Made by a program: the position numbers and the translations under genes. From Candidatus Terraquivivens ruidianensis (GTDB lineage Archaea; Thermoproteota; Nitrososphaeria_A; Caldarchaeales; Wolframiiraptoraceae): a DNA stretch of 64,000 bases. A model generated the notes under the pieces. That model searched no databases, had not been told where the DNA came from, and worked only from the letters and a program-made list of their open reading frames with translations. Location of the stretch: assembly GCA_023267885.1 (NCBI GenBank), contig JALNLB010000003.1:12792-76791 (forward strand), read 5' to 3'. Shown one piece after another: positions 47,100 through 63,080 of this stretch. Each line of letters starts with the position of its first letter. Position 1 is the first letter of the stretch.

Positions 47100-47175
47100 G
47101 GGCCGGTGGTCTAGCGGCTATGACGCTGCCCTTACGAGGCAGAGGTCGTGGGTTCGAGTCCCACCCGGCCCACCA
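47100..47175 (+). tRNA. tRNA-Val(UAC), intron-less. CCA is encoded.
   Basis: Canonical cloverleaf with anticodon loop CUUACGA. Confidence 0.85.
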
Positions 47176-47710: not shown

Positions 47711-48343
47711 TCATCGCATGTATGAGGCTATCAAAGTAATCCCGCGTCTTTCCGCCTCCTTACTTGCTGAAGGATGTATGAGGTAGCCGAACATCAATTT
47801 GTATGCTGGCATGCCGAGATAATTCTCAATAATCTTCACCTTTCGGTCAAACTCCTCGACGTCCCTGCCGTATATTCTTGACCTAACCTCTCCTACAACC
47901 TTAACCGTCTCGCCGTTTTTCTTGCCGTCGCCGTAGAGGTCAACCTGTACCTCCTCACCATCTATAACAAAAAATGTCCTACCGACCTCGACCTCTATGC
48001 CCTCATGTCTATAAAGCCAGCCGGGGACAACGACCTGTGCTATATCCTCAAGCCCGAAGCCAATAACCTCTGATAACTTGCCTACCTGAACCGCAAGCTC
48101 TTTTAGCGCCGCATCTGTCCTCTGCTGAGCCTCAGCAAGCCTTGCCACCGCATCCTCCAGCCTCCCAACCCTTTCCTCTGTCCTCTGCTGAGCCTCAGCA
48201 AGCCTTGCCACCGCATCCTCCAGCCTCGTGCTCGACCTCCTCAAATCTTCCATTCCTAGCATTCCGGCTACGGCATACCTGAATTCTTCGTCTTCTCTTA
48301 GTAACCTGATGAACTTCTTTTTTGTCTGGCTACTTACGGACAT
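47711..48343 (-). CDS. Coiled-coil protein with a C-terminal PD-(D/E)xK-like/DUF3782-like domain. It contains an internal 21-aa tandem repeat.
   Basis: RLEDAVARLAEAQQRT appears twice, encoded by a 63-bp tandem duplication. Confidence 0.45.
   Translation of the reverse strand: MSVSSQTKKKFIRLLREDEEFRYAVAGMLGMEDLRRSSTRLEDAVARLAEAQQRTEERVGRLEDAVARLAEAQQRTDAALKELAVQVGKLSEVIGFGLEDIAQVVVPGWLYRHEGIEVEVGRTFFVIDGEEVQVDLYGDGKKNGETVKVVGEVRSRIYGRDVEEFDRKVKIIENYLGMPAYKLMFGYLIHPSASKEAERRGITLIASYMR
48113..48226. repeat. Tandem direct repeat, two copies of a 51-bp core with period 63 bp
   Basis: tctgtcctctgctgagcctcagcaagccttgccaccgcatcctccagcctc at 48113 and again at 48176. Confidence 0.85.
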
Positions 48344-48657
48344 CCTGCAGCACGTCTAGCCTTTCTAATATAAAACCATTCAATACGCGCACTCACATAG
48401 TCCATCGCTGGCCTACTTAGAAAGGGTTTTTACTGTACAATAATTTCTGGATAGTTCAGATGTTCTTGAAAGCATCCAGAGAGTATTGCCTCGTCGCAGC
48501 CCCACCAGCTCTGCCGTTTCATAGGAGATTCTGCATGTAATACCGTGAAATTCTTAAAGGCGCTTTGACGGTGTGCTTTAAATTTTTGACTTCTACGTTC
48601 TGATTCCTTGAAATTTTGTGTATTCTAATCAGTAGAATGTCTCTAGAAACGAGCTGG

Positions 48658-48665
48658 TTAAATAA
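48658..48665 (+). promoter_or_regulatory. Candidate TATA box for the giant surface-protein gene
   Basis: ttaaataa lies about 38 nt upstream of the ATG at 48704. Confidence 0.3.
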
Positions 48666-48703
48666 AGCAGGTACAAGCATTCGGTCGCAAAATTGCGAGC
48701 GTG

Positions 48704-51700
48704 ATGAGAAAAATGGATAGACGTGCGAAGATAACCGCGCTGGCGCTTTTGGTAGTGATGGTTGCGGCAGTTATACTTCCTGCCGCGATCGTTCAGGTTA
48801 CAACAGCGCAGGCATACCATGAGGCATGGTTCAAGATAGTCACTTCTGCATGGAAAGGAACCCATAGATGGGAGTTCACAGGTTTTCCAGGTACGGGCTC
48901 TTTGGGCACTACAGGCTATTGGGATGAATATTATCCGCCAGTCTTCCCGATAGCAGACCAGTGGGGTATAATACCTGCAAGGTACAACCTAACGAAGATA
49001 GGTTCTGACGGTATCCCGACGTTGGAGCCGAACGTCGAGGTCGCAGTTTACTACCCGACAGGTCTTGAACCAAACCCCGTTGCATATTCTACGTTCACGC
49101 CGAACGGTACTGGCTTCGTAAAGGTTACATGGCCTAAAGACTGGCAAAACGTCACTATAGCAGTAAAGGCAAAGAGCTGGTACGGAGAGCCGATAAGGAC
49201 ATCTTCCAACAGGCTATACGAAGGAATTATACTGTTTATGATTAAGATAAATGCTACTAGGTACGAGTACGTTCGCAACGGCATAACTTCTGGTACTCTG
49301 TGGAGACCTAACGCGACCTTCATGTACAACGGTAGAGTAGGCATTCATCCATTCCTAGGAATGTTTGACTTTAGATACAGCGGGCCGGTTGTGTTCTGGT
49401 CGAAGGTAAGAGCCGACTCGGCCATTACCGACCTAGGTCCGGGTGCGTTCGCAGCATTCCACGCCAACGCTTCATACGCATTCCTTGCCAACTGCTCAAT
49501 TCTGTGGAAGAAGTTCCACACGCACACTTGGTATGGCATAAGGGACAACCTAAGCTATGCCCAGGTAAGGGTATACGACCTGAACTACACTGCCAACTCC
49601 CTTGGAGGAGTATCGGCACTGAGCGAGGCAACGCTGGTCGGAGCTGGAGTAACGAAGGCTCTCTACAGAGGTGATTCAAAGCTCAGGGATGCGGCTGACG
49701 GTCAGACTCCTTGGATACCCATACCCACCCAGACATTCCACCTGGGACTGAGGCTACCGTTCGCCCTCAGACATCCAACTGGAGATTTTGGCTTCGGCAA
49801 CGCCAGCTTCCCAGCAGGCCAGGCTAACACTGGCCCCCATCTGAACGCTACCGTCAGAGTTTGGTGGGAGACCGTCCTAGTAAACCAGACGAGGTACAGC
49901 TTCTGGGACAACCATACCATTTCTGAGAATCCAGACAGCATTATGGACACTTACGTAGACGCACCAGGTCCTCTAAACTTCACGCGTGGCGGATGGTTCA
50001 AGACACAAGATTACCATGGTATAGCGCCAAACCATAACAGCTCGTTAAACCACCTGAACTGTACGGTGTTCTACGCCAAGTTCCAGGCGAACGATACTGA
50101 CACGAGGGCAAAACACAGGACCTTCGGCGACGCTCTGGTCGATGCTCAAGTGCTAATAGTGTTGACGAAGCAGAAGGCAGGCGATGCAGGGCCAGTAGTT
50201 TACTTTGATAAGGATGAGATTGGTCTGACGAATGCTTCCAACACAGCGCTCCCAGGCCGTCATCCAGGCTATACAGACACCGTAAAGGGCTCCTCCATGG
50301 TGGGAGCTGAGGCCAACTTTACTGCTTTAGGTTACATGAGGTTCCCGAACTCATCGGTATTCTACTATGGAGGATACAAGATTGGAACTACACAGAAGGA
50401 TGTTAACCACCCATGGGTACTATACGACTACCCAGTAGTCTTCCACCCGGAGGATGCTGTGAACAGAGCAGAGGCTCTGGAGAGGCCGTGCACGAAGATA
50501 GTAAACATCAAGGAGCTGAACACGATAAGCCTTGACGATGACAAAGACAAGTGGGGCACTTTCAAGGGCATATTGGTACAAGTTAAGTGGAAGGGAGGTC
50601 CTGCTGGCGTATACGGAGGAGAATTCGTAACTGTAAACTCGACGCATATAACTAACCCATACGCCATAGCCCTCCGCAACGCATCATGGATTGTGCCTAC
50701 GAACCCAATACTGGTCAGGGCGACCCACGATGCTCTCAGCAGGTTTGATACGCCCGCCATCATGAGAGACCAGTACGGTATCAGAGGCCCGGTCTTCCCC
50801 AGACTCAGCAGGGGTGTTCTCACGCTTGGCGGCATATACCTTCTCAACTGTACTGTTTACGACCTTATGCTCCAGATAGTCGACAAGATGCTATCACCGC
50901 TCGAGCCTGCTGACACGAAGGTAGTCCTATACAGGCCGAACGGTCCTCCGGTAGAGTTCCAGGGCCTGCCTACAGAGCATACTGTACTGCTATCCGATGG
51001 AACACCAGTCTACAACGTCGTATTCTATGACTGGATATCGGCTAACGGAACGTTGTTGCTATTCCAGCTACCAGGCGATACGGGCGCTTATGGCATCAGG
51101 GTCTACTACCAAGGCGTTCTCGTCTACGATGAGCTGTTCCTGATACCCAAGCTGATAAAGACAGAGAACCTTACATTGGTAACGAACGTCTATAAGGTTC
51201 TGATAAAGGTGACGGATGCGCACGACGAGGGCTTGGCTTACACACCCGTATGGTACATACACCCAACTTACGGAGAAGTATTGGTCAACACTGCAGATGA
51301 CGGTAAGATAGATTTAGGAAAGACACCAATACCTGTCGGCGGTGGGGTAACGCTACCCACGCTGAAGTTCACTGGTGTTTACTGGAAGGGAGTTAAGGTA
51401 AAGTTCCTTGTGAAGGATGCGGTAAAGTATCCAGACGGCACGACGGCTGACTCAGAGCCTGACGGTTCCGTGTTCGTAGATACATCTAAGAGCGCATACA
51501 CGCCGATAATCGTTAGGGCAAGGATAACTGACCTAATATTCTACACATGGGACTTCCAGAAGGTTGAGAAGATAAACAATGTCAACATAACGATGTCTTG
51601 GTGGGGATACAACATAACGACTGGCAAGATTATAAAGTTCATAGAGACGATGGACCCAGGCGAAAGTAAGGACGTCGACCCGACAAAGCCAAGGCCGCCT

Positions 51701-54700
51701 ATCGGCGTACCGTGGGATTTGGCATTTGACCTGCAGAATTACAACACCTCAAGGATAGTCGCCCAGTTCTTCAGATACAAGATTACTTACTACATGGGCG
51801 AGGCCAAGGTGGTATTCCACCAGATGCCTGCTCTTGATGAGGAGGTCAACAGGCCTTGCATAAACGTAACGACGTCTACTATGACATGGAGATGGACCGG
51901 CTCGAACCATGAGAGGAAGCATTTCTCTGAGCTAATAGGTTGGGCCGGAGGCGCGGGTACATTCGCCGGAAACGCAACGCCTGGCTCTAACCTGTGGGAC
52001 AGTGTTACGACAGCTGAAGATGAGGCACATGGAAGGGTCGTGCTAAGGGTTATACCCAAGGCATTCAACCCTGACGTTTACTACGAAGACATAATCAAGG
52101 CTCTGAAGTTCGAGGAGCTTACGTTCTGCCAGAGGATAGCCATCGACCTTCCGCTCTGGGCTATGGGCTTCGACGTCGTTGCGATAAACGGTGAGAGATG
52201 GCTTGGCGGCGCAGAGTTCACGATAGTCAACGACGTAAACAGGACGATGATAACGCTAGTGACGAAGAGCGATGCGCCGATAACGCTAAGGTCGATAGTG
52301 AACAAGACGAACCCATTACTATCTAGGATATGGTGGAACAGCTCATCCCACTGGACGACTTACAACTTAGGCCCAAGCGGTAGGGCTAGGATACACGTAC
52401 CCGTCGCAGGCCAGGCGATGGTCGGCGCGATTGGAAGGGGATACAGGACAGAGTCCCTGACCTTCAAGACCGACATGGGTGTTACAGTGAGGAACTTCAC
52501 TTGGTACAGGTACGGCGGCGTATGGGCCGCTAACATAGGTCCGTGGCCAGACCGGGTCTCTGCTAACTACACGTTCTACGTGACGCCGAACGTAGCGCTG
52601 AAGGATGCATGGGCCACGAAGAAGACGATGGTTAGGGTCTGGGTCTGGAGCTTTGCAGAAGGCACGATGCCAGCAAAATACGACATTCCGTACATCTACG
52701 ATAAGCAGCTACTCAGGGTTCCGCTGCCCGTTGGCTTCATAACGCTGGAGCTGACTGACCAGGGTGGCGCTAGACCACTCAAGTACGCTTTTGTAAACAT
52801 AACAGCCCACATCAACGCTACTGTAGATGATGTGTGGCCGAGGTTCGTCGTCTACCCAGGGCCTGACGGAAAGGCACAGTGGGCAGGAAAGGTCGATTCT
52901 GAAGGAAAGGCAGAGATAATCGCACCGACTGCAGGATACCTGAACTACACGAGCAAGAAGTTTGGATATGAAGGTGATCCAGTAAGGTTCAAGACCTTCA
53001 ACATAACGGTATACTGGTACCTGAACAGCAGCGTCGTCTACGAGGCTTACTTCAACCTGACGAAGATGGGATGGAAGGTAGACAAGGTAGCGGTTGCAGA
53101 CGTCGTTCTGCACCACACGATATGCTCAGACCTTAACAGGGTAGTCAAGGGACTATACGCAGACGTGGCATGGAGGAACGTGACGGCGCCTGCCAATTTC
53201 GTGCACCCAGGCATACTGACTGCCGACGACGAGAAGTGGACGTGGACGCTGACGGAGATAGACGAGACGAAGGGGAAGGCAGCATGGACAACTGGAACAG
53301 TCGAGCTTAACCTAGTACCGACGGCTATGAAGTTCAAGGTCTACGACTGGTTCCTACAGAGGGAAGTCACGTGGAACGTAAGCCATCTATGGAGGGTCGC
53401 AGCGTGGTACACCGACCTGAAGAAAGGACCCGTACAGTTCGAAGGCGAGAGCTACAAGCAGCTGATGTTCGGTAGCGGCACTGATAAGTCACCAGTCAAC
53501 TCTGCTGTCTACATAATAATAGGCGCAGCACCATTCGACCACACGACGTACAGATGGACGAGAGCGAGCACTGATGTGCTAAGCGGCTGGTGGCCGGCAA
53601 CTACTGGTAGTGATGCGGACGGAAGTGGAGCACGATTTGTTGGTAAGATAGGCAGGTATCATCCTGTTACTTCGATAGGACTCATCGATTACTACGGTAC
53701 CGTCAAGACCAAAGAGGTCGTCGAGGCAACAAGGACAGTCAAGCTAGTGGCGCTTAAGCTGAACGCAACAGACTTGGCAGTAAAGGTAGCATGGCAGAGA
53801 GGAGAGAACGAGACGGCCACTTACATAACTGGTCCGCTGGTAGGCTGGAAGGTAAAGCTGACCTACGTACCGCCATACGAGTACCTATCTGATGCTGAAA
53901 GGGATGCTCTATGGACTGCATGGAGGAGGACGCTGGAGGTAACGACAGATGACGAGGGATTTGCATGGTTCAGGAGTGGTGACACACCGGAGACGGTCAT
54001 ATGGAACGCAAGCAGGATAAAGGCAGGAATGACCAGGGAGGCATCATGGCTTGTCGTCAGCCCGCCTGCTTACATGCTGAACGAGAAGGACCCGTACTGG
54101 CGTGACAACGTCGTAAAGCCTGGCGCTGAGGCACACGGCCTTAGCGTCTTCGAGGGAACGCAGGACCCAGCTGCCATGGTCGGCGTAGACCTTACACCGG
54201 AGGGATACTTCTCATGGCTGCCAGACCCATCGCTATGGGTAAGTGATGAGTGGTTTAGCACTATCTACTCCTTGTATGGCTATCCAGGTATGTGGACTTT
54301 CTATAACGAGTGGGGTGCAGGACTATGGTTGCCTTCACTCTTTGGCGAGGGATACAGTGGAAGCTCCGGATGGGCAAGGATAGCAGGCGCATGGTACGCA
54401 AGGATAAACGTATGGCCTAACAACCCAGCGACATCCCAGCACGTGCCTTACACGCCAGTGTTCCAGTACATGGAAGTAACGGCACAGATAAGGGACTTCA
54501 ACGGAAGGCCGCTGCCAGGCGCATTCTTCTGGATGATAGACTCGGTAACTGGCAAGACGGCAGGCTGGTCCTATGCTGGTAAGGACGGCCTCACTGAAAA
54601 AGTATACCTGAGGAAGCCTGAGTTCACCCTGCTGCTCAGAGTCCACTACCTAGGCAGGGATGCTGAAGGCCATCCAGCATGGCCGTTCAACGCCTTCGGA

Positions 54701-56086
54701 AAGTGGCCGGCTAGCTACTACAGCGATGCAGACGAGACAGAGCCAGGACCTGGAATATTCGGAGAGCTAGCAAAGAGGGTAAAGGTAACGACATTAGCCC
54801 ACGAGTATCATGGTGTTTGGAGGGTCAGGCCAGGCGTCCACTGGGATATAACGGCGAGGATATTCGACATAAGGGTAAGGCATTACTACGAGACTGCTAA
54901 GCCGATAGAGGTTGATGCAACGTTCTACAGGGAGTTCCCAGATAAGCTAGGTGGAACGGTTGAGTTCAAGGCTAAGGAGATCATAGAGGTCAAGAGGCTG
55001 AACAGGGGAACCTACGAGGAGATAGCCAAGTGGCTCGGAGTTGCAGTAGGAAGGAAGAGCTTCGACCTTAGCGCTGCCAACGTAGGAACGGTCGCCGCCG
55101 AGCTTGAGTGTGCCGTCGGTGACATAAGCGTGACCGCCAAGGACATAACTGGAAGGGTGCTGAGTGACGCCATCGCAAAGTTCGAGGGCGTCGAGCAGAA
55201 GCTGACGATACCGCCGGAGATACTTGAGAAGTACGGTATTGCGAGCGAGGAGGATGCTAAGACGTTGAAGGCAGTAGGCGCAGTGTTCGTGACGAGGTTG
55301 CCGATACCGACGAACATAAGGTACAGCCTAGACCTCTCATGGACCTCGCCTGACTTCGGAACGGATGCAAAGGTCTCAGTGGTCGACACGGTCAGCGGAC
55401 TTAACGCCAGGAGGGAGATAACGCTGCCTGTTGGCGTCGTTACGATCAACGTCGTGGACGGCAAGGGAAGGGCCATAGCAGGAGCCGAGGTGTCGCTAGG
55501 ACCAGTAAAGGCTAAGACAGATGCAGCAGGAAAGGCGGTGTTCGAGAGCGTACCGCTCGAGAGGGAAGGCAGGGGCATAGCCTACCAGATAACCGTCACA
55601 CGCGAGGGTGAGGTGGTCTACAGGGAGACCGAGACCTTCTCGGTAGCTAAGACCTCGATAACGGTCATAGGAGAGCTGTATGACCTTAGTGTGCTGGTGA
55701 AGGGTGCCGCAGGCCAAGGCCTGCCGTTCGCAACGGTAACGTTGAAGAGGGCAGGCGTGGTGGTGGGACACTTCACGACCGACGAGGGAGGTGCAGTGAC
55801 GATACCGAAGCTAGTGGCCGCAGACTACGAGGTAGAGGTTGCGTACAAGGGATACACAGGGACGGCCACCATCTCGAAGGCAGACCTGACGGCTGGCAAG
55901 AGGGCTGAGGTAACGCTGCCGCCATACGTAGAGATAGCCGGCATGCCTCTGACGTTCGCCACGTTCCTAGCCTTGATAATCGGCATAGTCCTGCTGGTCA
56001 TAGTAGTAGTCGTCATAGCATTCGAGTACGTGCGCTGGCGCGGTAGAAGGGTGGGAATATTCCCGCCTCCGCCACCAAAGAAGTAG
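48704..56086 (+). CDS. Giant (2460 aa) secreted, sequon-rich surface protein with a C-terminal TM anchor. It is a candidate S-layer or stalk glycoprotein.
   Basis: Signal peptide, more than 40 N-x-S/T sequons, two C-terminal CarboxypepD_reg/Cna-B-like beta-sandwich repeats, a TM helix and a RRVGIFPPPPPKK tail. Confidence 0.7.
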   Translation: MRKMDRRAKITALALLVVMVAAVILPAAIVQVTTAQAYHEAWFKIVTSAWKGTHRWEFTGFPGTGSLGTTGYWDEYYPPVFPIADQWGIIPARYNLTKIGSDGIPTLEPNVEVAVYYPTGLEPNPVAYSTFTPNGTGFVKVTWPKDWQNVTIAVKAKSWYGEPIRTSSNRLYEGIILFMIKINATRYEYVRNGITSGTLWRPNATFMYNGRVGIHPFLGMFDFRYSGPVVFWSKVRADSAITDLGPGAFAAFHANASYAFLANCSILWKKFHTHTWYGIRDNLSYAQVRVYDLNYTANSLGGVSALSEATLVGAGVTKALYRGDSKLRDAADGQTPWIPIPTQTFHLGLRLPFALRHPTGDFGFGNASFPAGQANTGPHLNATVRVWWETVLVNQTRYSFWDNHTISENPDSIMDTYVDAPGPLNFTRGGWFKTQDYHGIAPNHNSSLNHLNCTVFYAKFQANDTDTRAKHRTFGDALVDAQVLIVLTKQKAGDAGPVVYFDKDEIGLTNASNTALPGRHPGYTDTVKGSSMVGAEANFTALGYMRFPNSSVFYYGGYKIGTTQKDVNHPWVLYDYPVVFHPEDAVNRAEALERPCTKIVNIKELNTISLDDDKDKWGTFKGILVQVKWKGGPAGVYGGEFVTVNSTHITNPYAIALRNASWIVPTNPILVRATHDALSRFDTPAIMRDQYGIRGPVFPRLSRGVLTLGGIYLLNCTVYDLMLQIVDKMLSPLEPADTKVVLYRPNGPPVEFQGLPTEHTVLLSDGTPVYNVVFYDWISANGTLLLFQLPGDTGAYGIRVYYQGVLVYDELFLIPKLIKTENLTLVTNVYKVLIKVTDAHDEGLAYTPVWYIHPTYGEVLVNTADDGKIDLGKTPIPVGGGVTLPTLKFTGVYWKGVKVKFLVKDAVKYPDGTTADSEPDGSVFVDTSKSAYTPIIVRARITDLIFYTWDFQKVEKINNVNITMSWWGYNITTGKIIKFIETMDPGESKDVDPTKPRPPIGVPWDLAFDLQNYNTSRIVAQFFRYKITYYMGEAKVVFHQMPALDEEVNRPCINVTTSTMTWRWTGSNHERKHFSELIGWAGGAGTFAGNATPGSNLWDSVTTAEDEAHGRVVLRVIPKAFNPDVYYEDIIKALKFEELTFCQRIAIDLPLWAMGFDVVAINGERWLGGAEFTIVNDVNRTMITLVTKSDAPITLRSIVNKTNPLLSRIWWNSSSHWTTYNLGPSGRARIHVPVAGQAMVGAIGRGYRTESLTFKTDMGVTVRNFTWYRYGGVWAANIGPWPDRVSANYTFYVTPNVALKDAWATKKTMVRVWVWSFAEGTMPAKYDIPYIYDKQLLRVPLPVGFITLELTDQGGARPLKYAFVNITAHINATVDDVWPRFVVYPGPDGKAQWAGKVDSEGKAEIIAPTAGYLNYTSKKFGYEGDPVRFKTFNITVYWYLNSSVVYEAYFNLTKMGWKVDKVAVADVVLHHTICSDLNRVVKGLYADVAWRNVTAPANFVHPGILTADDEKWTWTLTEIDETKGKAAWTTGTVELNLVPTAMKFKVYDWFLQREVTWNVSHLWRVAAWYTDLKKGPVQFEGESYKQLMFGSGTDKSPVNSAVYIIIGAAPFDHTTYRWTRASTDVLSGWWPATTGSDADGSGARFVGKIGRYHPVTSIGLIDYYGTVKTKEVVEATRTVKLVALKLNATDLAVKVAWQRGENETATYITGPLVGWKVKLTYVPPYEYLSDAERDALWTAWRRTLEVTTDDEGFAWFRSGDTPETVIWNASRIKAGMTREASWLVVSPPAYMLNEKDPYWRDNVVKPGAEAHGLSVFEGTQDPAAMVGVDLTPEGYFSWLPDPSLWVSDEWFSTIYSLYGYPGMWTFYNEWGAGLWLPSLFGEGYSGSSGWARIAGAWYARINVWPNNPATSQHVPYTPVFQYMEVTAQIRDFNGRPLPGAFFWMIDSVTGKTAGWSYAGKDGLTEKVYLRKPEFTLLLRVHYLGRDAEGHPAWPFNAFGKWPASYYSDADETEPGPGIFGELAKRVKVTTLAHEYHGVWRVRPGVHWDITARIFDIRVRHYYETAKPIEVDATFYREFPDKLGGTVEFKAKEIIEVKRLNRGTYEEIAKWLGVAVGRKSFDLSAANVGTVAAELECAVGDISVTAKDITGRVLSDAIAKFEGVEQKLTIPPEILEKYGIASEEDAKTLKAVGAVFVTRLPIPTNIRYSLDLSWTSPDFGTDAKVSVVDTVSGLNARREITLPVGVVTINVVDGKGRAIAGAEVSLGPVKAKTDAAGKAVFESVPLEREGRGIAYQITVTREGEVVYRETETFSVAKTSITVIGELYDLSVLVKGAAGQGLPFATVTLKRAGVVVGHFTTDEGGAVTIPKLVAADYEVEVAYKGYTGTATISKADLTAGKRAEVTLPPYVEIAGMPLTFATFLALIIGIVLLVIVVVVIAFEYVRWRGRRVGIFPPPPPKK

Positions 56087-56120
56087 GAGCCTGCGGCGCT
56101 CCTACAAATCCCCCTTTTTA
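56087..56120 (+). terminator. Hairpin plus T-tract terminator after the giant gene
   Basis: GGAGC-ctgcggc-GCTCC followed by cccccttttta. Confidence 0.4.
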
Positions 56121-56134
56121 TTGGTAAAATTCAC

Positions 56135-56980
56135 GTGCTAGGAATATCTCTGCATCTTTATGCAAGCCCTAAGCTTTATTATGAGCTAGACGGCTCGCCT
56201 TATACAAAAGCTTATCAAATAGTAAAGCTAATATATTTAATGAAAATGTGGATTCCGAGATGGTTAGGAGAAGGTTATGCTAGGCTCTACTCCTCTTTTT
56301 CTCGTGGTATATTCACGTTTGACGATGTCTGCAAGAGGTTAGGACTCAGCTCCAGTAGGGCGCACATATTCTTATCGGCGTTAAGAAAATCAGGGGCACT
56401 GATAGATTTTAGAAGAGGACGGCCTAGGCTCTACAGGCTCCTCGAACCTAGAAGCTTCATGCTCGTCGCCTCCGGCATAGCGAGCAGACCGCCTAACATC
56501 CAAGGAGAGTACGTGCAGCTGGTATACGACGTCCTGAGAGCCTTGAGGGCGAGCTTAAACCCGATTTCAATGACCGTTTACGGCTCGGTCGCCAGAGGAT
56601 CCGCAGGGCCAACGAGCGACGTAGACATCCTCGTCGTTTCAGACGAATTCAAGGGGAGTTTAGCATCGAGGATAGATAGGTTGCTCGAGGTTGAGCGCGA
56701 CACGGATATACGGGATGAGCTTAAGCTTCTTAGGTCGCACGGAATACACGCTAGCTTAAGCTTTTACCCGATAAGGAGGGAAGAAGCAGGGAAGCTTCCG
56801 CCCCTCTTGCTGGACGTGGCTTACGAGGCGGCCATATTGTTAGATGACGGCTTCCTGAACAACCTTCTCTCAAGATTAAGGTCTAAGCTTGAGCTAATAG
56901 GAGCTAAGCGTTACGTGCTTCAGGACGATAATTGGTACTGGGACCTAGGACCAAGGGCCTCCGAGGTCTGGGCTTTATGA
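56135..56980 (+). CDS. wHTH plus nucleotidyltransferase (Pol-beta superfamily), the MNT-like partner of HEPN
   Basis: VYGSVARGSAGPTSDVDILVV. Confidence 0.75.
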   Translation: MLGISLHLYASPKLYYELDGSPYTKAYQIVKLIYLMKMWIPRWLGEGYARLYSSFSRGIFTFDDVCKRLGLSSSRAHIFLSALRKSGALIDFRRGRPRLYRLLEPRSFMLVASGIASRPPNIQGEYVQLVYDVLRALRASLNPISMTVYGSVARGSAGPTSDVDILVVSDEFKGSLASRIDRLLEVERDTDIRDELKLLRSHGIHASLSFYPIRREEAGKLPPLLLDVAYEAAILLDDGFLNNLLSRLRSKLELIGAKRYVLQDDNWYWDLGPRASEVWAL

Positions 56981-57402
56981 GTGCCCTATTGAGGTTGGCT
57001 AAAGCTTACTTAAGGCAGGCTGCTGACAGGCTAGCAGACGCTAAGGGCGCACTCGAGAGGGGCAACTACCCCTATGCCCTTAGGCTCTCGCAGGAATGTG
57101 TAGAGCTTAGCTTAAAGGCATCGCTTAAGATGGTAGGGATCGAGTATCCAAAGGTTCATGACGTTTCGGACGTCTTGCTAGATTACAGGGAGAGGTTCCC
57201 AGCATGGTTCAAAGAGAAGGTAGATTTCCTCGCTGAAACTTCTAGAAAGCTTAGTAGCAAAAGGGGACTCAGCTTCTACGGTGGAGAGGAGGCTCTGCTC
57301 TCACCCGAGGAGCTGGTAAGCAAAGAGGATGCTGAGGAAGCCATGAGACGCGCCTCAGATACGCTGGAGCTGGTAAGTCGCCTCATGCCCTGTATTGAGT
57401 AA
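56977..57402 (+). CDS. HEPN-domain protein (PF05168-like), coupled by ATGA to the NTase gene
   Basis: LRQAADRLADAKGALERGNYPYALRLSQECVELSLKA. Confidence 0.7.
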   Translation: MSALLRLAKAYLRQAADRLADAKGALERGNYPYALRLSQECVELSLKASLKMVGIEYPKVHDVSDVLLDYRERFPAWFKEKVDFLAETSRKLSSKRGLSFYGGEEALLSPEELVSKEDAEEAMRRASDTLELVSRLMPCIE

Positions 57403-57545
57403 TTGGACATCAGCCGTCATAGAGGAAGCATCCCATGTAGCCTATTTTCCTTTATGTAAATCCTATCCCCATCAGCGTATAACGTCTAGACGTCCATATC
57501 TTAAACCCTTAGGAAACGTATTTCTATGGCTAATCTTACAGAATT

Positions 57546-58565
57546 GTGACGAATAAGATGGGGAGAGCGCGCATCCTGCTACCGTTAATGGTCCTGCTTC
57601 TCGTAATGCAGTTATTGGTGGTCAACTCACAGCCCGTGCCGGGAGGCTCCTTCGATAGTGCGGGTGAGGTACGCTTAGAGGTTGGAAAAACGGCGCTGGT
57701 TAGTAGTAGCCTTTCACAATTAGAGGACCATTACTATAGGCTATCTGGAGTGAGCGCTGGACACGAGCTGGATCTGAACATAAGCATACGCTCTAAGGAG
57801 GGAGGAATGGTGATGGTATCGCTCTTTACGGAGAAGAAGGCAAAGGTGCTAGACGAGAAGTTTGTCTTAAGGGACGAGGAGCTGAGAAATATACCCCTGA
57901 GGTGGTTGACGGAAAAGGGAGGCGACTTCTACCTCAAGGTAAGCGCGGTCGGAGGAAGCCACGAGTACAACGTTTCGGCAACGCTCTTGGATAGGAGGGA
58001 TGCGGGAAAGAAGGAGGCAGGCTCGAGCATAGAGGACGCGACGTACGTAGGCATGGCATCCTATGGCATGGAGCTTTCCCTATCGGGCTACCTCGCCGCA
58101 TCGGGCGCTGGTGACGACTTTACGGACTTCTACGTCTTCGACACAATGTTGAGGAAGATGGAAGCCGTCAGGATTACCGTGCTACCCGATGCCGGTATGT
58201 CCCTAGAAGCATCCCTACATCTTCCAGACGGCTTTACGGTTACCCGAAACGGCTCCGCATCTCCGGGCAAGGGCTTTACGCTGACGCTTAAGGGAGATAT
58301 AGCAGGCAACAAGACCTTCTACCTGAAAGTTTCCAACATGGACGGCCATGGAGGCGGCGGAAGGTACTCCGTATACATCAATGCTTTTAACCTAACCGCA
58401 CCGAAGCTGGAGCCAAAGGTAAAGATAAACCTGGTGGACAAGGAGCTGGCAAGGCAGCTGATAATAATCTCAGTAGCCGTTATAGCGGGGATGACCGTCG
58501 TAGCCCTCGTCCTAAGGAGGAAAAGCGCCTCGGCCGAAGAGTGGTACGGAGCCTATCAGTATTAG
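57546..58565 (+). CDS. Secreted protein with two beta-sandwich (PPC-like) repeats and a C-terminal TM anchor
   Basis: Signal peptide, sequons NIS/NVS/NGS/NKT/NLT, and a C-terminal IIISVAVIAGMTVVALVLRRK helix. Confidence 0.6.
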   Translation: MTNKMGRARILLPLMVLLLVMQLLVVNSQPVPGGSFDSAGEVRLEVGKTALVSSSLSQLEDHYYRLSGVSAGHELDLNISIRSKEGGMVMVSLFTEKKAKVLDEKFVLRDEELRNIPLRWLTEKGGDFYLKVSAVGGSHEYNVSATLLDRRDAGKKEAGSSIEDATYVGMASYGMELSLSGYLAASGAGDDFTDFYVFDTMLRKMEAVRITVLPDAGMSLEASLHLPDGFTVTRNGSASPGKGFTLTLKGDIAGNKTFYLKVSNMDGHGGGGRYSVYINAFNLTAPKLEPKVKINLVDKELARQLIIISVAVIAGMTVVALVLRRKSASAEEWYGAYQY

Positions 58566-58716: not shown

Positions 58717-59109
58717 ATGGGTTTGGATGCCTTAGCAAAGCTATTTGAAGGTGAGGAGAAAGTTTTAGTCGCCTACGTATTCGGCTCGTATGCGAAGGGG
58801 GTTGCTACGCCCAGGAGCGACTTCGACATAGCCGTTCTTTTGTCGGAGACCCCGCAGAGATTGCTCGACTACTACCTGCACCTTATTAACAGGCTGTCTG
58901 AAGTCCTAGGAGACAGCATAGACCTAGTGATACTTAACGTTGTTCCTCCCGCGCTTAAACATCAAGTTATAAGATATGGCAAGCCGATTTACATTCGGGA
59001 CGAGCAGGCAAGGATAGTTTTTGAGGCAAGAGCCATAAGCGAATATCTGGATTTCGCCAGAATCTTGAAGAGGTATGATGAATGTTTGATGAGACGCATC
59101 CTAGCATAG
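58717..59109 (+). CDS. Minimal nucleotidyltransferase (MNT) antitoxin
   Basis: GSYAKGVATPRSDFDIAVL. Confidence 0.8.
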   Translation: MGLDALAKLFEGEEKVLVAYVFGSYAKGVATPRSDFDIAVLLSETPQRLLDYYLHLINRLSEVLGDSIDLVILNVVPPALKHQVIRYGKPIYIRDEQARIVFEARAISEYLDFARILKRYDECLMRRILA

Positions 59110-59537
59110 ATGAGACGTTAATCCTAGCCAAAATGGGCAAGCTAAACCAATACCTGAAATATCTAAACGAGCTTCGAAAATGTAGCCTAGAAGAATTCAA
59201 GGATGATTTTAAGATAAGCGGGTCTGCCGAAAGATACCTTCAAGTAGCCATCGAATGCGTAATCGACATAGGTAATGAGATTATTTCCTCTCTCCAACTC
59301 AAAAGGCCGGAACGCTACAGGGACATCCCGTACATACTTTCTGAAGCGAAAATAATACCAAAAAACTTTGCAGAGACGTTCGCAACGATGATAGGATTCA
59401 GAAACCTATTAGTACACGACTACGCATCAATAAACCTTGACATGGTTTATGAATTCCTCCAGAAGAAACTTCAAGACTTTGAAGCCTTCATGAGACACGT
59501 CTCCAAATGGCTTAAAGAAGCCAAGAATGTTTATTAG
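59082..59537 (+). CDS. HepT/DUF86 HEPN toxin
   Basis: The Rx4HxY motif FRNLLVHDY. It overlaps the MNT gene. Confidence 0.8.
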   Translation: MFDETHPSIDETLILAKMGKLNQYLKYLNELRKCSLEEFKDDFKISGSAERYLQVAIECVIDIGNEIISSLQLKRPERYRDIPYILSEAKIIPKNFAETFATMIGFRNLLVHDYASINLDMVYEFLQKKLQDFEAFMRHVSKWLKEAKNVY

Positions 59538-60005
59538 AACGTCGCCTCGGGAACTTTGCAACTTATATTATCCACTCTCGGTCCATAAACAGTAAAAGAG
59601 CGACGACCCGAGAGTTGGAAAACCTTGGGACTGGTTTTACCCACCACATAAAATAGCCAAAAAGGCTTACTAAACATAACAGTCATCGATATGGCTTCAA
59701 GAAGGGTTGAGGATGTAGGACAGCAACTCTTATCGCTACCAAAGCAATACAAGCAACGGCTTACTCTAACCTGACATAAGCTTTCTCAAGGTTGCCCTGC
59801 CCCTCGGCGAGCTTCATAACGAATTCTCCTAACTTTGTGACGGCCTCTTCCAGCCCTAAGCTCGCCCCTTATGTCTCAATAATGACCTATCAGAGATAGT
59901 ATTTTATGAGCGTTCAATTTATTTTCAACAATTTTCATTCATCGAAAAGGTTCGAGCCTTTTGGAAAGAAAAACCTTATAAGAAAACTGGCGACTCATCC
60001 AAAAG

Positions 60006-60395
60006 GTGCGTTTAATGGATGCATGCCCTGTCCTTAAATTGTTGAGGAGCATTAGGGTGAGGGCTATCAGGCATGGAACTTATTACAGGAATCTAACCAG
60101 CATAGAGAGGGCTATAACCGAGCTGTCTATTAGATGTAGGATAAAGTTCAGGAGCTTTAGGCTTCTTATGGTAATTGCGAGGATAATCGTCAAGCTACGT
60201 AAGTACACGCCCATATCCTTTTTCGACAGAATTCTATCGTTGGGAAAGGAGCTTGTCAAAAAGGTTTCGCTAATAGCCTATAGCTGGGGTAACGTGTCCG
60301 CCCTGTCTTGGATAGAAGACAGGACTTTTGTCGTTTACTTAGGCATGATGGTGCTCCAAAGGCCGTTCTCAATGTTGATTACCAACTACGCATAA
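60006..60395 (+). CDS. Hypothetical basic protein (may be a gene fragment)
   Basis: 129 aa, R/K/I/L-rich, with no recognisable motif. Confidence 0.25.
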   Translation: MRLMDACPVLKLLRSIRVRAIRHGTYYRNLTSIERAITELSIRCRIKFRSFRLLMVIARIIVKLRKYTPISFFDRILSLGKELVKKVSLIAYSWGNVSALSWIEDRTFVVYLGMMVLQRPFSMLITNYA

Positions 60396-60466
60396 CTTTC
60401 ATGGAGCTCGTATAACATCGACGGGTGTTTAACGACATTAAGCAAAGATAAGAGAACCCGTGAAAA

Positions 60467-61393
60467 ATGGAAGTGAGCGGCTTGGAAGATACTTCTGAAT
60501 CTATTAAGGGCAACTACAAAGTCGTTGCGTGCATACCTGCATACAATGAGGAGAGGACGATAGCGAAGGTTATACTAAAGGCGCAGAAGCATGTAGACGT
60601 GGTCCTAGTCTGCGATGATGGCTCGGCCGATATGACAGCGGAGATTGCCGGGAGGATGGGAGCAACGGTCCTGAGACACGAGAACAATAAGGGGAAGGGT
60701 GCCGCTTTGAGGACGCTATTCGATGCGGCTCTGAAGATGGATGCCGATATAGTCGTCACTCTGGATGCCGATGGTCAGCATGACCCTGATGACATTCCAG
60801 TACTCATAGAACCTATAAAGCAAAATATGGCGGACATCGTCATAGGTTCAAGGTTTTTATCGTCAACAAAAGACGTTCCGCTTTACAGAAGGTTCGGGAA
60901 CAAGATATTAAATTTCTTAACAAGTACCGCATCTAAAAAGCGGTTAACAGATACGCAGAGTGGATTTAGGGCATACTCGTTTGGGGCAATTAAGAGCATA
61001 ACGATAATCGAGGATGGTATCGGTGTTGACTCGCAAATAATAATGGACGCACTCAAAAAGAACCTAAGGATAGTTGAGAGGGGGATATCCGTTCACTATG
61101 AAAAGGGGACATCAACATATAACCCAGTTACTCATATGAGTAACGTTATTGTCTCAATCATAAACTATGCTATCAGAAAGAGACCACTCACACTGGTTGG
61201 AGTCCCCGGATTTCTCATTTCTATTGCCGGGTTCGGTCTAATAGTATATGTTATACAGAGATTCTTTGAAGTGAAAGAGCTTGCGGTGGGTACCATGTTC
61301 ATAGGAGCTCTGATATTCATGATAGGAATTTTCATGATGCTCACGGCTATCATGCTTTATGCTATAACAGGCATAACTACTAGCAGACAGTAA
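60467..61393 (+). CDS. GT2 polyprenyl-phosphate glycosyltransferase (DPM1/GtrB/AglD-like) with C-terminal TM helices
   Basis: ACIPAYNEE...DDGSAD...DADGQHDP. Confidence 0.8.
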   Translation: MEVSGLEDTSESIKGNYKVVACIPAYNEERTIAKVILKAQKHVDVVLVCDDGSADMTAEIAGRMGATVLRHENNKGKGAALRTLFDAALKMDADIVVTLDADGQHDPDDIPVLIEPIKQNMADIVIGSRFLSSTKDVPLYRRFGNKILNFLTSTASKKRLTDTQSGFRAYSFGAIKSITIIEDGIGVDSQIIMDALKKNLRIVERGISVHYEKGTSTYNPVTHMSNVIVSIINYAIRKRPLTLVGVPGFLISIAGFGLIVYVIQRFFEVKELAVGTMFIGALIFMIGIFMMLTAIMLYAITGITTSRQ

Positions 61394-61417
61394 TATGATG
61401 AGGGCGTACATACCATA

Positions 61418-62293
61418 ATGTCCAGCAATAGTGTTAAAGAGCCTGGAAGTGTTTGGCAGGACTTTGCAAAAACCCAGTCCATAGTAGAAAGAGCTGTTAG
61501 GCATCCCTATACAACCTTCCTTAACGTCGTTGAGGGTCGCCTCGTAAATGTTATACTTCGTCAACTCAGTGGTGACTCATACATTTTGGATGTTGGCTGC
61601 GGAACTGGAAGGTGGACGGTAAACATTGCTAAACACGGGGTTAACGTGGTCGGAGTTGACGTAGCCCCGGACTTCATAAAAATGGCGAAGGTCTGGGCTG
61701 TTAAGAAGGGTATAAGAGGTTACACGGATTTTGTCGTTGCAGATGTGAAATCTCTACCATTTAACTGTGACAGCTTACACGGCGCTCTTTGTATAGGCGT
61801 CCTGCAACATCTACAAAGCGTAATCACGATAGCCCATGCACTCCAAGAGATGAAAAGAGTTTTAAGGAATCGGGCATTAATAGTCATGAGGGAGCTGGCA
61901 CCGAAACAGAAAAATGAATACATCATATCACCTTGGTCGCCACCTGCTTTAGCGTTCAGCGTAGGAGAGTGGAAGAAGATGTTTTCTAATGTTAATTTCC
62001 GAGTTAATGAAGTTCGCGGGTTCGAGGTTGCGCCTTTGATGCTCATGTTTGCACGTATTAGCAGGGTACTCTCTGCCAGCCTTCTGTCCAACTACAAACT
62101 AAACCCCTCCCATAAAACATTTCCAATTTTTAAAATTCTTTACATGCTGTTCAGGAACATGGCAGCAATAATATCCTTGCCGTTTGAGCTCCTTTTACAA
62201 TGTAGGTTAGTAGGGATTTCTGAGTTCAAACTTTTTCTGCTTGAAGTTACAAAGGACGATCATACAATAACTAACAAGGGACGGGACGAATAG
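61418..62293 (+). CDS. Class I SAM-dependent methyltransferase
   Basis: LDVGCGTGRWT motif I. Confidence 0.7.
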   Translation: MSSNSVKEPGSVWQDFAKTQSIVERAVRHPYTTFLNVVEGRLVNVILRQLSGDSYILDVGCGTGRWTVNIAKHGVNVVGVDVAPDFIKMAKVWAVKKGIRGYTDFVVADVKSLPFNCDSLHGALCIGVLQHLQSVITIAHALQEMKRVLRNRALIVMRELAPKQKNEYIISPWSPPALAFSVGEWKKMFSNVNFRVNEVRGFEVAPLMLMFARISRVLSASLLSNYKLNPSHKTFPIFKILYMLFRNMAAIISLPFELLLQCRLVGISEFKLFLLEVTKDDHTITNKGRDE

Positions 62294-62339
62294 AAAAAAA
62301 GGATTTAGAAGGTAGCACCCCCGAACCAACTAGAATATA

Positions 62340-63050
62340 ATGAGAGAAATGTTAAGAATTCTAAGCACAGAGAACAGCATGATACGTCCAGTAATTCAGC
62401 TTTTAATGCTTAAAAGAGCAACCCGTTTTACTAAAAAGTGCCTAGGCACTGAAGAAGTGAACATAACTTCTGATCTGCTAGCCCTTCAAAATCATCTTAA
62501 ACGCTTGATAGATAGCTTTCCTGATAAAGGCTTTAGACGTGATTATTGGCTAAGCCCTTATCCAGAAGTAATACTGTACACGCTTCTTAGAACTCTTCGA
62601 CCCAGAACAGTTGTCGAGACAGGTGTTTCAGGTGGGATATCGTCAAGTTATATGTTACAAGCATTAAAAGATAATGGGTGTGGCATGCTTTATTCTATAG
62701 ACCTACCGTCTTCAAGATATCGTTACAGATACAAGTCCGGTTGGATGGTTCCAGAACATCTCAGAAATAGATGGTCCTTAATTATCGGGGATTCTAAAAA
62801 GGAACTGAAGCCACTACTAATAAACCTTAGAGAGATAGATGCATTTTTCCATGATAGTCTCCATACATATGAACACATGCTCTGGGAATACAAGACCGTG
62901 TGGCCTTTTATTCGCTGGGGAGGTCTTTTGATTTCAGATGACATCCAATCAAACAGAGCGTTTCACCATTTTAGCAAGATTATAAACCGGAAAACTTACT
63001 CCTACAGGAAGGGTCCCTTTACATATTTGGGCGTGATAAGAAAATCTTAG
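62340..63050 (+). CDS. SAM-dependent O-methyltransferase (TylF/MycF/CmcI-like)
   Basis: VETGVSGGISS...LYSIDL. Fold pattern of the macrocin-O-MT family. Confidence 0.6.
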   Translation: MREMLRILSTENSMIRPVIQLLMLKRATRFTKKCLGTEEVNITSDLLALQNHLKRLIDSFPDKGFRRDYWLSPYPEVILYTLLRTLRPRTVVETGVSGGISSSYMLQALKDNGCGMLYSIDLPSSRYRYRYKSGWMVPEHLRNRWSLIIGDSKKELKPLLINLREIDAFFHDSLHTYEHMLWEYKTVWPFIRWGGLLISDDIQSNRAFHHFSKIINRKTYSYRKGPFTYLGVIRKS

Positions 63051-63080
63051 TTTTAATACCGCGTGGGAGCCTACATCCTG

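Follow-up and report, generated by a model that had tools for sequence, protein, structure and literature searches.

The S-layer protein of Pyrobaculum arsenaticum, PySLP (HC235_06945, UniProt A0A7L4PAH2), was identified by Caspy et al. (August 2026, bioRxiv 10.64898/2026.08.21.746120) through cryo-electron tomography (cryo-ET), cryo-electron microscopy (cryo-EM) at 5.75 Å and mass spectrometry of the envelope. It is one polypeptide of 2,667 amino acids (aa) and 292 kDa with 19 immunoglobulin (Ig)-like domains, built from a lattice-forming core, a pillar of eight Ig-like domains, a β-hairpin, a transmembrane (TM) helix and a basic tail with a terminal lysine; six of its stalks bundle into a hollow pillar. 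Homologs of PySLP were proposed in Thermoproteales, Thermofilales, Culexarchaeales and Caldarchaeales, and for the last of these orders HHpred indicated two remote homologs, MCL7393743.1 from Candidatus Wolframiiraptor allenii and MCL7394657.1 from Candidatus Terraquivivens yellowstonensis, for which PySLP-like S-layers were proposed (bioRxiv 10.64898/2026.08.21.746120). Other S-layer systems share parts of this design. In SlaA/SlaB of the Sulfolobales (PDB 7ZCX, 8QOX), a glycosylated canopy is held off the membrane by a C-terminally anchored, Ig-containing stalk, while tetrabrachion of Staphylothermus marinus is a very large, glycosylated, C-terminally anchored S-layer protein on a long stalk. 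Here we describe a giant open reading frame (ORF) on a stretch of 64,000 nucleotides (the window) from contig JALNLB010000003.1 of Candidatus Terraquivivens ruidianensis, a metagenome-assembled genome (MAG) of the Caldarchaeales ("Aigarchaeota"; Nitrososphaerota). We consider its product likely to be the Caldarchaeales version of the "colossal" single-polypeptide, PySLP-like S-layer protein.

Caldarchaeales are abundant in hot springs; we know of no pure-culture isolate, and a search for published data on their envelope found none. If the proposed assignment is true, the giant protein would give metaproteomics and glycoproteomics, as well as cryo-ET of enrichments and virus-receptor studies, a defined target, and the "colossal" stalked S-layer architecture would reach beyond the Thermoprotei. 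Both the protein family and its role in the S-layer have been predicted in earlier literature, and the credit for the assignment belongs to Caspy et al. (bioRxiv 10.64898/2026.08.21.746120). Our additions are modest and testable, namely a partner gene, a sequon-free stalk combined with conserved outer sites, an almost invariant tail, a promoter box and Brockarchaeota-like relatives; they bear on how the S-layers of Thermoproteota arose from modular Ig-rich parts.

The giant protein family and its proposed relation to PySLP

Positions refer to the whole window, and residues are numbered from the ATG at 48704 (Table 1). The giant ORF, which had been predicted to span 48704–56086 with 2,460 codons, is indeed one uninterrupted frame on the forward strand (48701/48704–56086), the ATG at 48704 giving 2,460 aa. 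The true start is probably the ATG at 48713, three codons later, because in an alignment of the upstream regions only this second ATG is kept as a start in frame in all three close relatives.

Table 1. Coordinates of the giant gene, the parts of its product and the neighbouring elements (window numbering)
Feature	Position	Strand	Remarks
tRNA-Val	47100–47175		1.5 kb upstream of the giant gene, with another ORF between
Upstream region of the giant gene	48545–48703	+	TCTAGAA box 48642–48648; TATA-like GGTTAAATAAAG 48656–48667; palindrome TCGCAAAATTGCGA 48685–48698
Giant ORF, candidate PySLP-like S-layer glycoprotein	48704–56086	+	2,460 aa, 274 kDa unglycosylated
Sec-type signal peptide (predicted), aa 1–37	48704–48814	+	MRKMDRRAK / hydrophobic core / TTAQA, cut before YHE
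Outer region, presumed lattice/canopy part, aa 38–1770	48815–54013	+	Sequon- and Trp-rich; all 46 sequons
Sequon-free stalk, aa 1771–2400	54014–55903	+	Includes Ig-like domain aa 1915–1985 (hhalign self-matches)
Four tandem Ig-like (CarboxypepD_reg/CnaB-like) domains	54839–55879	+	aa 2046–2138, 2142–2232, 2238–2316, 2318–2392
Membrane-proximal β-hairpin, aa 2401–2411	55904–55936	+	AEVTLPPYVEI; strands in AlphaFold2 model
Single TM helix, aa 2416–2440	55949–56023	+	Kyte-Doolittle up to 3.6; helix in model; conserved across the order
Cytoplasmic tail, aa 2441–2460	56024–56083	+	EYVRWRGRRVGIFPPPPPKK; basic, proline-rich, Lys at end
Terminator-like hairpin	56083–56122	+	GTAGGAGC-CTGCGGC-GCTCCTAC, then oligo-T; overlaps stop codon
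Toxin-antitoxin (TA) cassette, MNT/HEPN-type (Pfam)	56135–57402	+	Helix-turn-helix nucleotidyltransferase 56135–56980; HEPN 56932–57402
Upstream region of the partner gene	57470–57557	+	Conserved; BRE/TATA-like GGAAACGTATTTCTATGG (57512–57529)
Partner gene	57558–58565	+	335 aa; signal peptide, two β-jelly-rolls (aa 36–145, 162–278), five sequons, TM helix
Second MNT/HEPN-type TA pair	58717–59537		
Glycosyltransferase (GT) gene, GT2	60467–61393		
Methyltransferase genes	61418–62293 and 62340–63050		

Homologs retrieved from a collection of 5.8 billion proteins all came from Nitrososphaerota/"Aigarchaeota" MAGs and measure about 2,100–2,850 aa; all family members together range from about 2,100 to 2,950 aa. 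A scan of one genome per GTDB species yielded 45 loci, with one locus in most of the genomes, and the named ones are all Caldarchaeales: Terraquivivens (64–82% identity), Pelearchaeum, Caldarchaeum, Wolframiiraptor, Calditenuis, Geocrenenecus and HR01. Judged by these sequences, the family is confined to the Caldarchaeales and spans the order. An alignment of 30 sequences shows conservation from end to end, most markedly at the mature N-terminus (AWLKIVT), in the TM helix and in the cytoplasmic tail. In locus L025, from the Calditenuaceae JGI OTU-1 assembly, a further N-terminal fragment of a family member lies closely downstream of the giant gene in convergent orientation (10924–12543, reverse strand); it may represent either another copy of the gene or an artefact of co-assembly.

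Both Caldarchaeales proteins named by Caspy et al. belong to this family. An exact-sequence look-up showed that the ORF of locus L028 is identical to MCL7393743.1, and MCL7394657.1 falls into the 90%-identity cluster of the protein of locus L006. In BLASTP comparisons the window protein is 62% identical to MCL7394657.1 over the full length and homologous end to end to MCL7393743.1. By this comparison the giant gene is an ortholog of S-layer candidates that had already been proposed, and hence not new as a finding; a search for further mention of these proteins beyond bioRxiv 10.64898/2026.08.21.746120 found none. The original prediction, made from the DNA letters, pointed to the Thermoproteales for the type of envelope; the organism itself belongs to the Caldarchaeales/Nitrososphaerota and not to the Thermoproteales. 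Its core reading, that of an S-layer candidate with a stalk, a C-terminal anchor and heavy N-glycosylation in an envelope of the Thermoproteales type, is the best supported one, by way of the orthologs proposed as PySLP homologs.

PySLP and the window protein have a common plan: a single polypeptide in the range of 2,500 aa, a signal peptide, an ectodomain that contains Ig-like domains and many sequons, a tandem-Ig stalk, an aromatic residue in the membrane-proximal hairpin, a single TM helix near the C-terminus and a basic tail with a terminal lysine. They differ in that their sequence similarity is remote and that the window protein has 8 cysteines, as compared to 14 reported for PySLP. The Caldarchaeales proteins are moreover reported to carry extensive insertions, and the crown domain to be specific to Pyrobaculum (bioRxiv 10.64898/2026.08.21.746120). 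The neighbouring genes also differ, the PySLP-like genes of Thermoproteales being accompanied by genes for a membrane Ig-like protein, AMMECR1, a thioredoxin-like protein, an adenylate cyclase and a DNA ligase, whereas the giant gene described here has a tandem jelly-roll partner. Finally, the S-layer role of PySLP is established by experiment, that of the Caldarchaeales members predicted.

Domain architecture of the giant protein

The composition of the giant protein sets it apart from the 19 other ORFs of the window. Tryptophan is about three-fold enriched (3.41% versus 1.08%), and tyrosine (4.9% versus 3.7%), threonine (8.8% versus 4.7%) and asparagine (3.9% versus 2.6%) are also more frequent, in agreement with the Trp/Tyr richness noted originally. 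At the N-terminus the predicted signal peptide is recognizable as an n/h/c pattern at aa 1–37, read from the sequence as a basic n-region, a 20-aa hydrophobic core (h-region aa 10–30) and a c-region in which AQA precedes the tyrosine of the mature protein. This feature is kept in all full-length family members, and every member has AW[LF]KIVT at its mature N-terminus.

In a Pfam scan the sole significant match was CarboxypepD_reg, in two stretches (E = 4.4e-10), at the same residues that had been quoted for two tandem domains of this type. An AlphaFold2 model was calculated for aa 1261–2460 from an alignment of 11 sequences (mean pLDDT 51.8). Its usable part comprises aa ~2040–2450 with pLDDT of ~70–87 and shows four all-β Ig-like domains, the hairpin and the TM helix; the segment aa ~2040–2415 is all β (pLDDT 70–87), and the sole long helix is the TM segment. 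In hhalign self-comparisons the four membrane-proximal domains match one another with E values of 1e-5 to 1e-8, and they also match aa 1915–1985 as well as two Ig-like repeats of the outer region at aa 712–816 and 823–895, suggesting that the outer part contains Ig-like modules, too.

Directly ahead of the TM helix, two strands (aa 2401–2404 and 2409–2411) form the hairpin, whose Y2408 (Y1148 of alignment A4) is near-invariant in the family and replaced by phenylalanine in the Brockarchaeota-like relatives described below. The single C-terminal TM helix followed by a cytoplasmic tail, as claimed originally, was recovered at aa ~2416–2440, the protein ending in ...RWRGRRVGIFPPPPPKK. At an ortholog identity of ~30%, the tail residues E2441, Y2442, W2445, R2446, G2447, R2448, R2449, G2451, P2457, P2458, K2459 and K2460 are invariant or nearly so, and lysine is the last residue in every family member seen.

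A G-M-P-L-T-F motif ahead of the TM helix suggested an archaeosortase-type sorting signal. This candidate was rejected, as NCBIfam searches with the whole giant protein and with its last 100 aa, at E values up to 5, matched no sorting-signal model (PGF-CTERM, PEF-CTERM, PEFG-CTERM and similar). Archaeosortase sorting signals typically stop soon after the basic cluster; the tail of the giant protein extends ~11 residues past it.

Insertions were noticed in the outer region. A 34-aa insertion (...SSHWTTYNLGPSGRARIHVPVAGQAMVGAIGRG) at aa ~1213–1246 (window 52340–52441) is carried by the window protein as the sole one among 30 aligned members, and two Caldarchaeum-type proteins, P0011 and P0013, have a very acidic, helix-like insertion of ~150 aa (…DDRNDPALQPETITDNERDAIALAIIGLL…) aligned to window aa ~1360–1400.

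Sequons and presumed glycosylation

The giant protein contains 46 N-x-S/T sequons, as compared to 12.1 ± 3.2 (maximum 23) in 1,000 shuffles of its own composition, in line with the more than 40 sequons predicted. They are not spread over the whole length, as had been stated, but all lie within aa 95–1768, and the last ~690 aa contain none. The same partition is seen in the 29 aligned members compared (the truncated P0031 was left out): their N-terminal ~1,520–2,180 aa carry 1.8–3.0 sequons per 100 aa, their last ~630–730 aa 0–0.44 per 100 aa. Fourteen of the 46 window sequons are located in columns that have a sequon in at least 25 of the 30 aligned sequences, at an overall identity of ~30%. 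These conserved positions argue for true N-glycosylation of the outer part. The family-wide lack of stalk sequons would be explained by a buried, tightly packed stalk, and a glycan-free stalk fits a tightly bundled pillar like that of PySLP.

Proposed S-layer function of the giant protein

Taken as a PySLP-like protein, the giant protein would be exported by the Sec system through its N-terminal signal peptide, and an oligosaccharyltransferase would glycosylate many of the 46 sequons within the outer ~1,730 residues. By analogy with PySLP, the Trp/Thr-rich, Ig-containing outer part would build the lattice canopy, and the sequon-free C-terminal ~690 residues, with at least five Ig-like domains of which four are confidently modelled, would serve as the stalk that keeps this canopy off the membrane. 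The hairpin with Tyr2408, the TM helix and the near-invariant, basic, proline-rich tail presumably anchor the protein. In the most speculative step, the separately promoted partner with its two collagenase-type jelly-rolls would act as an accessory envelope component, probably at the foot of the stalk.

Several observations weigh against this interpretation. Our own searches gave no direct link to PySLP, so that the connection rests on the HHpred result of Caspy et al., and this similarity mostly concerns Ig-like domains, which are widespread. Sequence searches of the PDB, with the single protein as well as with the 30-sequence profile, returned noise only and no link to PySLP. A word-seeded profile search of the 5.8 billion proteins retrieved Caldarchaeales-type and generic CarboxypepD_reg repeat proteins and none from Thermoproteales. 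An exhaustive HMMER search with a profile of the C-terminal 1,200 aa gave 4,072 matches; much of the best 150 consists of generic repeat proteins, and the ten named ones among these 150 include no Thermoproteales. The outer, would-be lattice part (1,700 aa) is without a confident model, most of aa 1261–2040 having a pLDDT <50, and in structure searches the stalk came closest to those of bacterial pilins and adhesins. A literature search for expression, proteomic or imaging data on Caldarchaeales found none, and it is through remote homology that we infer lattice formation.

The structural matches direct attention to a different function. When the modelled stalk was compared with the PDB (entries released up to 8 April 2026) by Foldseek, no match to PySLP was obtained; the matches were Ig stalks of the tandem CnaB/SpaA type (TIE, SdrD and pilins, with E values from 4e-10), and also SlaB of Sulfolobus acidocaldarius (8qox_B, E = 3e-5, ~205 columns). 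The giant protein might thus be a membrane-anchored adhesin or fibril, an archaeal counterpart of MSCRAMM/CnaB proteins that attaches to minerals, biofilm matrix or cells and forms no lattice. The preference of Foldseek for TIE, SdrD, BcpA and SpaC (E 4e-10 to 1e-5) would be in line with such a role, as would the label "MSCRAMM family protein" that NCBI assigns to a Brockarchaeota-like relative with the same anchor, and the lattice reading, for its part, rests on remote homology. We nevertheless regard an adhesin as unlikely. Adhesins are mostly variable, multi-copy and patchy in distribution, whereas the giant gene is found order-wide, mostly at one locus per genome and in housekeeping synteny; its promoter and its sequon positions are conserved, and TM helix and tail are nearly invariant. 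Moreover, PySLP, a proven S-layer protein, has the same type of Ig stalk, and the HHpred queries over representative Thermoproteota proteomes, which also included SlaA/SlaB and the S-layer proteins of Nitrosopumilus, Aeropyrum and Staphylothermus, named only PySLP-like proteins as S-layer candidates in Caldarchaeales (bioRxiv 10.64898/2026.08.21.746120). The resemblance to Gram-positive pilin and MSCRAMM stalks (PF13620 CarboxypepD_reg, PF17802 SpaA) concerns the fold of the stalk domains, at the level of single domains; unlike these proteins, the window protein is archaeal and held by a TM helix instead of a sortase LPXTG signal.

The PySLP-like reading also differs from the comparison drawn originally, which was to tetrabrachion. 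That resemblance applies to the general type, a stalked and anchored S-layer protein, but not to the stalk itself: the stalk of tetrabrachion is a four-stranded α-helical coiled coil of ~70 nm, whereas the modelled stalk of the window protein is all-β, Ig-like and without coiled coil. A sequence relationship of the window protein to tetrabrachion was not found.

The anchor module in other proteins

The exhaustive HMMER search also detected four giants of 1,784–2,057 aa from Brockarchaeota-like Thermoproteota MAGs, P0202, P0224, P0240 and P0247, with 25–45 sequons each. Three of them start with a signal-peptide-like hydrophobic segment; P0224 is N-terminally truncated. They match the window family in the last ~290 residues only, which comprise three Ig-like domains, the hairpin, the TM helix and a tail HEYHIYRRKRLPQLFGAPAAPK (hhalign E = 1.6e-30), and one hhalign run gave no match of the outer regions of P0202 to the family profile. 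One short protein bearing this anchor carries the annotation Candidatus Brockarchaeota, and numerous proteins of 320–450 aa (P0157, P0158, P0160, P0163, P0230 and P0253) approximately correspond to the anchor module alone. The tail motif of the module in these relatives reads EY/HEY-x-x-[WY]R-x-[RK]R. In the Brockarchaeota-like assemblies the giant and the short protein are non-adjacent, as their accession numbers suggest.

Because the module recurs in otherwise dissimilar giants and in short stalk-only proteins, the stalk-anchor unit, as far as its distribution among sequences tells, behaves as a portable cassette, and it may be an ancient one. Its spread agrees with the view that Thermoproteota S-layers were assembled from modular Ig-rich parts, and the Brockarchaeota-like proteins represent a lineage absent from the list of Caspy et al. 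(bioRxiv 10.64898/2026.08.21.746120). A cassette made up of three Ig-like domains, the hairpin, the TM helix and a tail of the form EY-x-[RWY]-R-x-R-R could have been the building block of SlaB-like as well as PySLP-like architectures.

The independent occurrence of the module raises the question whether the giant protein is a stalk or anchor subunit only, comparable to SlaB, with the canopy formed by another secreted protein encoded elsewhere. Besides the proteins of ~320–450 aa and the dissimilar giants, the Foldseek match to SlaB is compatible with such a division of labour; our inspection of the genome covered 64 kb. Still, ~1,730 sequon-laden extracellular residues far exceed the needs of an anchor and are conserved over their whole length across the order, PySLP fulfils both roles in one polypeptide, and the ectodomain of the sole conserved neighbour amounts to just ~250 aa. 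Caspy et al. report similarity between hidden Markov models of PySLP-like proteins and the Ig region of SlaB (bioRxiv 10.64898/2026.08.21.746120). The locus departs from the SlaA/SlaB system in that a canopy-sized region and a TM anchor are united in one ORF, in that the model of aa ~2040–2450 lacks the coiled coil present in SlaB, and in that the adjoining small gene codes for a jelly-roll fold unlike SlaA or SlaB. A purely SlaB-like role therefore seems to us somewhat less probable even than that of an adhesin, and a PySLP-like protein combining canopy and stalk remains the preferred assignment.

The partner gene

Downstream of the giant gene, a second gene encodes a membrane protein that was missed in the original prediction and is not mentioned for Caldarchaeales in bioRxiv 10.64898/2026.08.21.746120. 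Of the 40 loci in which the 3' end of the giant gene is present, 35 have a gene of this kind (~335–390 aa) downstream in the same orientation, for example at 16996–18003 in L001, 17483–18541 in L002 and 18070–19137 in L003. In 30 of these 35 loci the gap between the two genes measures 12–220 bp, one of them showing a 28-nt overlap of the frames; the gap of 1,451 bp in the window is due to an inserted MNT/HEPN cassette. The partner was not seen just downstream in three Calditenuis-type loci, one Geocrenenecus-type locus and L023.

Beyond its TM helix the partner continues with the stop-transfer motif RRK and ends in a short tail of acidic and aromatic residues (...EEWYGAYQY). Throughout the family the helix is followed by basic stop-transfer residues and a short tail whose end is always an aromatic cluster; some lineages have a Thr-rich linker ahead of the helix. 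The AlphaFold2 model of the partner has a mean pLDDT of 75.8. Its two domains are likened to the PPC/collagen-binding domains of the clostridial collagenases ColG and ColH (PDB 5IKU, 3JQW, 1NQD), from which the partner differs in having no protease domain, in being membrane-anchored and in its cytoplasmic aromatic tail. No model of Pfam or NCBIfam matched the partner, and among 24 members one matched the Pfam PPC family (PF04151), at E = 0.26, which is below significance.

In most lineages a GGAAAAC-GTTTTTA-like motif, resembling a TFB-recognition element (BRE) with TATA box, is found 35–45 nt ahead of the partner ATG. At the other end of the spacer, L001, L004 and L005 have retained the post-stop hairpin and the T-run of the giant gene. 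With both the terminator-like element and the partner's own BRE/TATA-like motif conserved, giant gene and partner are probably transcribed as separate neighbouring units and do not form a strict operon.

The upstream region of the giant gene

Over ~160 nt upstream of the giant gene, the DNA of the window is ~88% identical to that of three relatives whose proteins are only 62–65% identical. Each of the 17 distinct 5' regions from across the order has a (T)TCTAGA(A) palindrome ahead of the giant gene (e.g., L002 9923–9937, L019 9932–9946, L040 9927–9941); in the 13 regions inspected by eye it is located ~8–12 nt upstream of the TATA-like box, and often an TTTAGAAT half-site lies ~10 nt further upstream, giving an TTTAGAAT-N-TCTAGAA element. 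TCTAGA is three-fold under-represented in the window, with 7 sites as compared to 23 ± 4 expected. From its sequence context the box looks like a conserved transcription-factor site, and a dedicated regulator of the S-layer gene may bind to the TTCTAGAA box throughout the order.

A box common to giant gene and partner was considered and rejected as a case of order-wide co-regulation, since TCTAGA was present in 10 of 32 partner upstream regions, several times at other positions; its occurrence there is limited to Terraquivivens-type loci and a few others. A structured 5' untranslated region (5' UTR) or riboswitch ahead of the giant gene was likewise rejected, the upstream region giving no Rfam match and a folding z-score of –0.19, which is not unusual. 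The palindrome TCGCAAAATTGCGA just ahead of the start codon keeps its stem bases while its central bases vary in L001 and L004; it could be a hairpin of the 5' UTR or an operator.

Combining the partner, the anchor module and the box, one might picture the Caldarchaeales S-layer as a two-part, membrane-integrated system of giant protein and partner, with an ancient portable cassette as its anchor and the box as the site of its regulator. We regard this combination as possible but, taken as a whole, rather doubtful. In such a system the partner, having its own TM helix, would sit at the base of the stalk; the basic polyproline tail of the giant protein (...RWRGRRLGIYPPPPPKK) and the ...EEW/Y-aromatic tail of the partner might touch one another or bind to one shared factor in the cytoplasm, and these contacts could couple the lattice to the cell interior.

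Genomic context

At 0.614, the GC content at third codon positions (GC3) of the giant gene is the same as the average for the window's other ORFs (0.613). Genes for TFIIE-α, Trm56, TauE, an ArsR-type regulator, a DUF2148 protein and GMP synthase, located upstream, recur near the orthologs of L001 and L002, and this upstream synteny extends even to a relative with no more than 30% identity between the orthologs. On the downstream side, L001–L003 again have archease and a Methyltrn_RNA_3 gene. Because of its host-like GC3 and the conserved housekeeping synteny, the giant gene is a core, vertically inherited gene and not the cargo of an island.

This bears on the view, advanced originally, that the flanking tRNA and two TA pairs mark an envelope island. 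All of these elements exist, but both TA pairs are located downstream, and the tRNA lies beyond another ORF. Together with the low-GC glycosyltransferase/methyltransferase block at 60–64 kb, they could be taken to indicate that the giant gene was recently acquired and mobilised along with tRNA, TA pairs and glycosylation genes. We consider this very improbable, as the gene does not deviate from the window in GC3, has orthologs order-wide and shares its upstream synteny with relatives, and as the first TA cassette is itself an insertion. It was inserted exactly between the hairpin/oligo-T element of the giant gene and the conserved upstream region of the partner, and the intergenic halves flanking it align to the unbroken spacer of relatives. 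Gaps of 2.4–4.3 kb at the same spot between giant gene and partner were seen in L007, L015, L026 and L039.

The glycosyltransferase and methyltransferase genes had been described as the next genes. They do exist but start 4.4 kb downstream of the giant gene, after five other ORFs (the first TA pair, the conserved 335-aa membrane protein, the second TA pair and a 129-aa ORF precede GT2), and they are not conserved neighbours, being absent from the loci of the three relatives examined. Positions 60000–64000 of the window have a low GC content (41–44%, as compared to ~50%), and two of the three genes show a GC3 of 0.49 and 0.45, as compared to ~0.61. A functional link between these genes and the giant gene was rejected, and their adjacency is treated as coincidental, because of their absence in relatives and the atypical GC3 of the two genes. 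This 60–64 kb block, rather than the giant gene, looks horizontally acquired, and an island reading, contradicted for the giant gene, could hold only there.

The 210-aa ORF between tRNA-Val and the giant gene (47711–48343, reverse strand) contains a tandem coiled-coil repeat (LEDAVARLAEAQQRTE, twice); it had no match in the Pfam scan, and a weak match to DUF8196 is on record. DUF8196 ORFs are also found just upstream of the giant gene in L003, and in L002 its flanks carry DUF3782/PDDEXK_10 ORFs.

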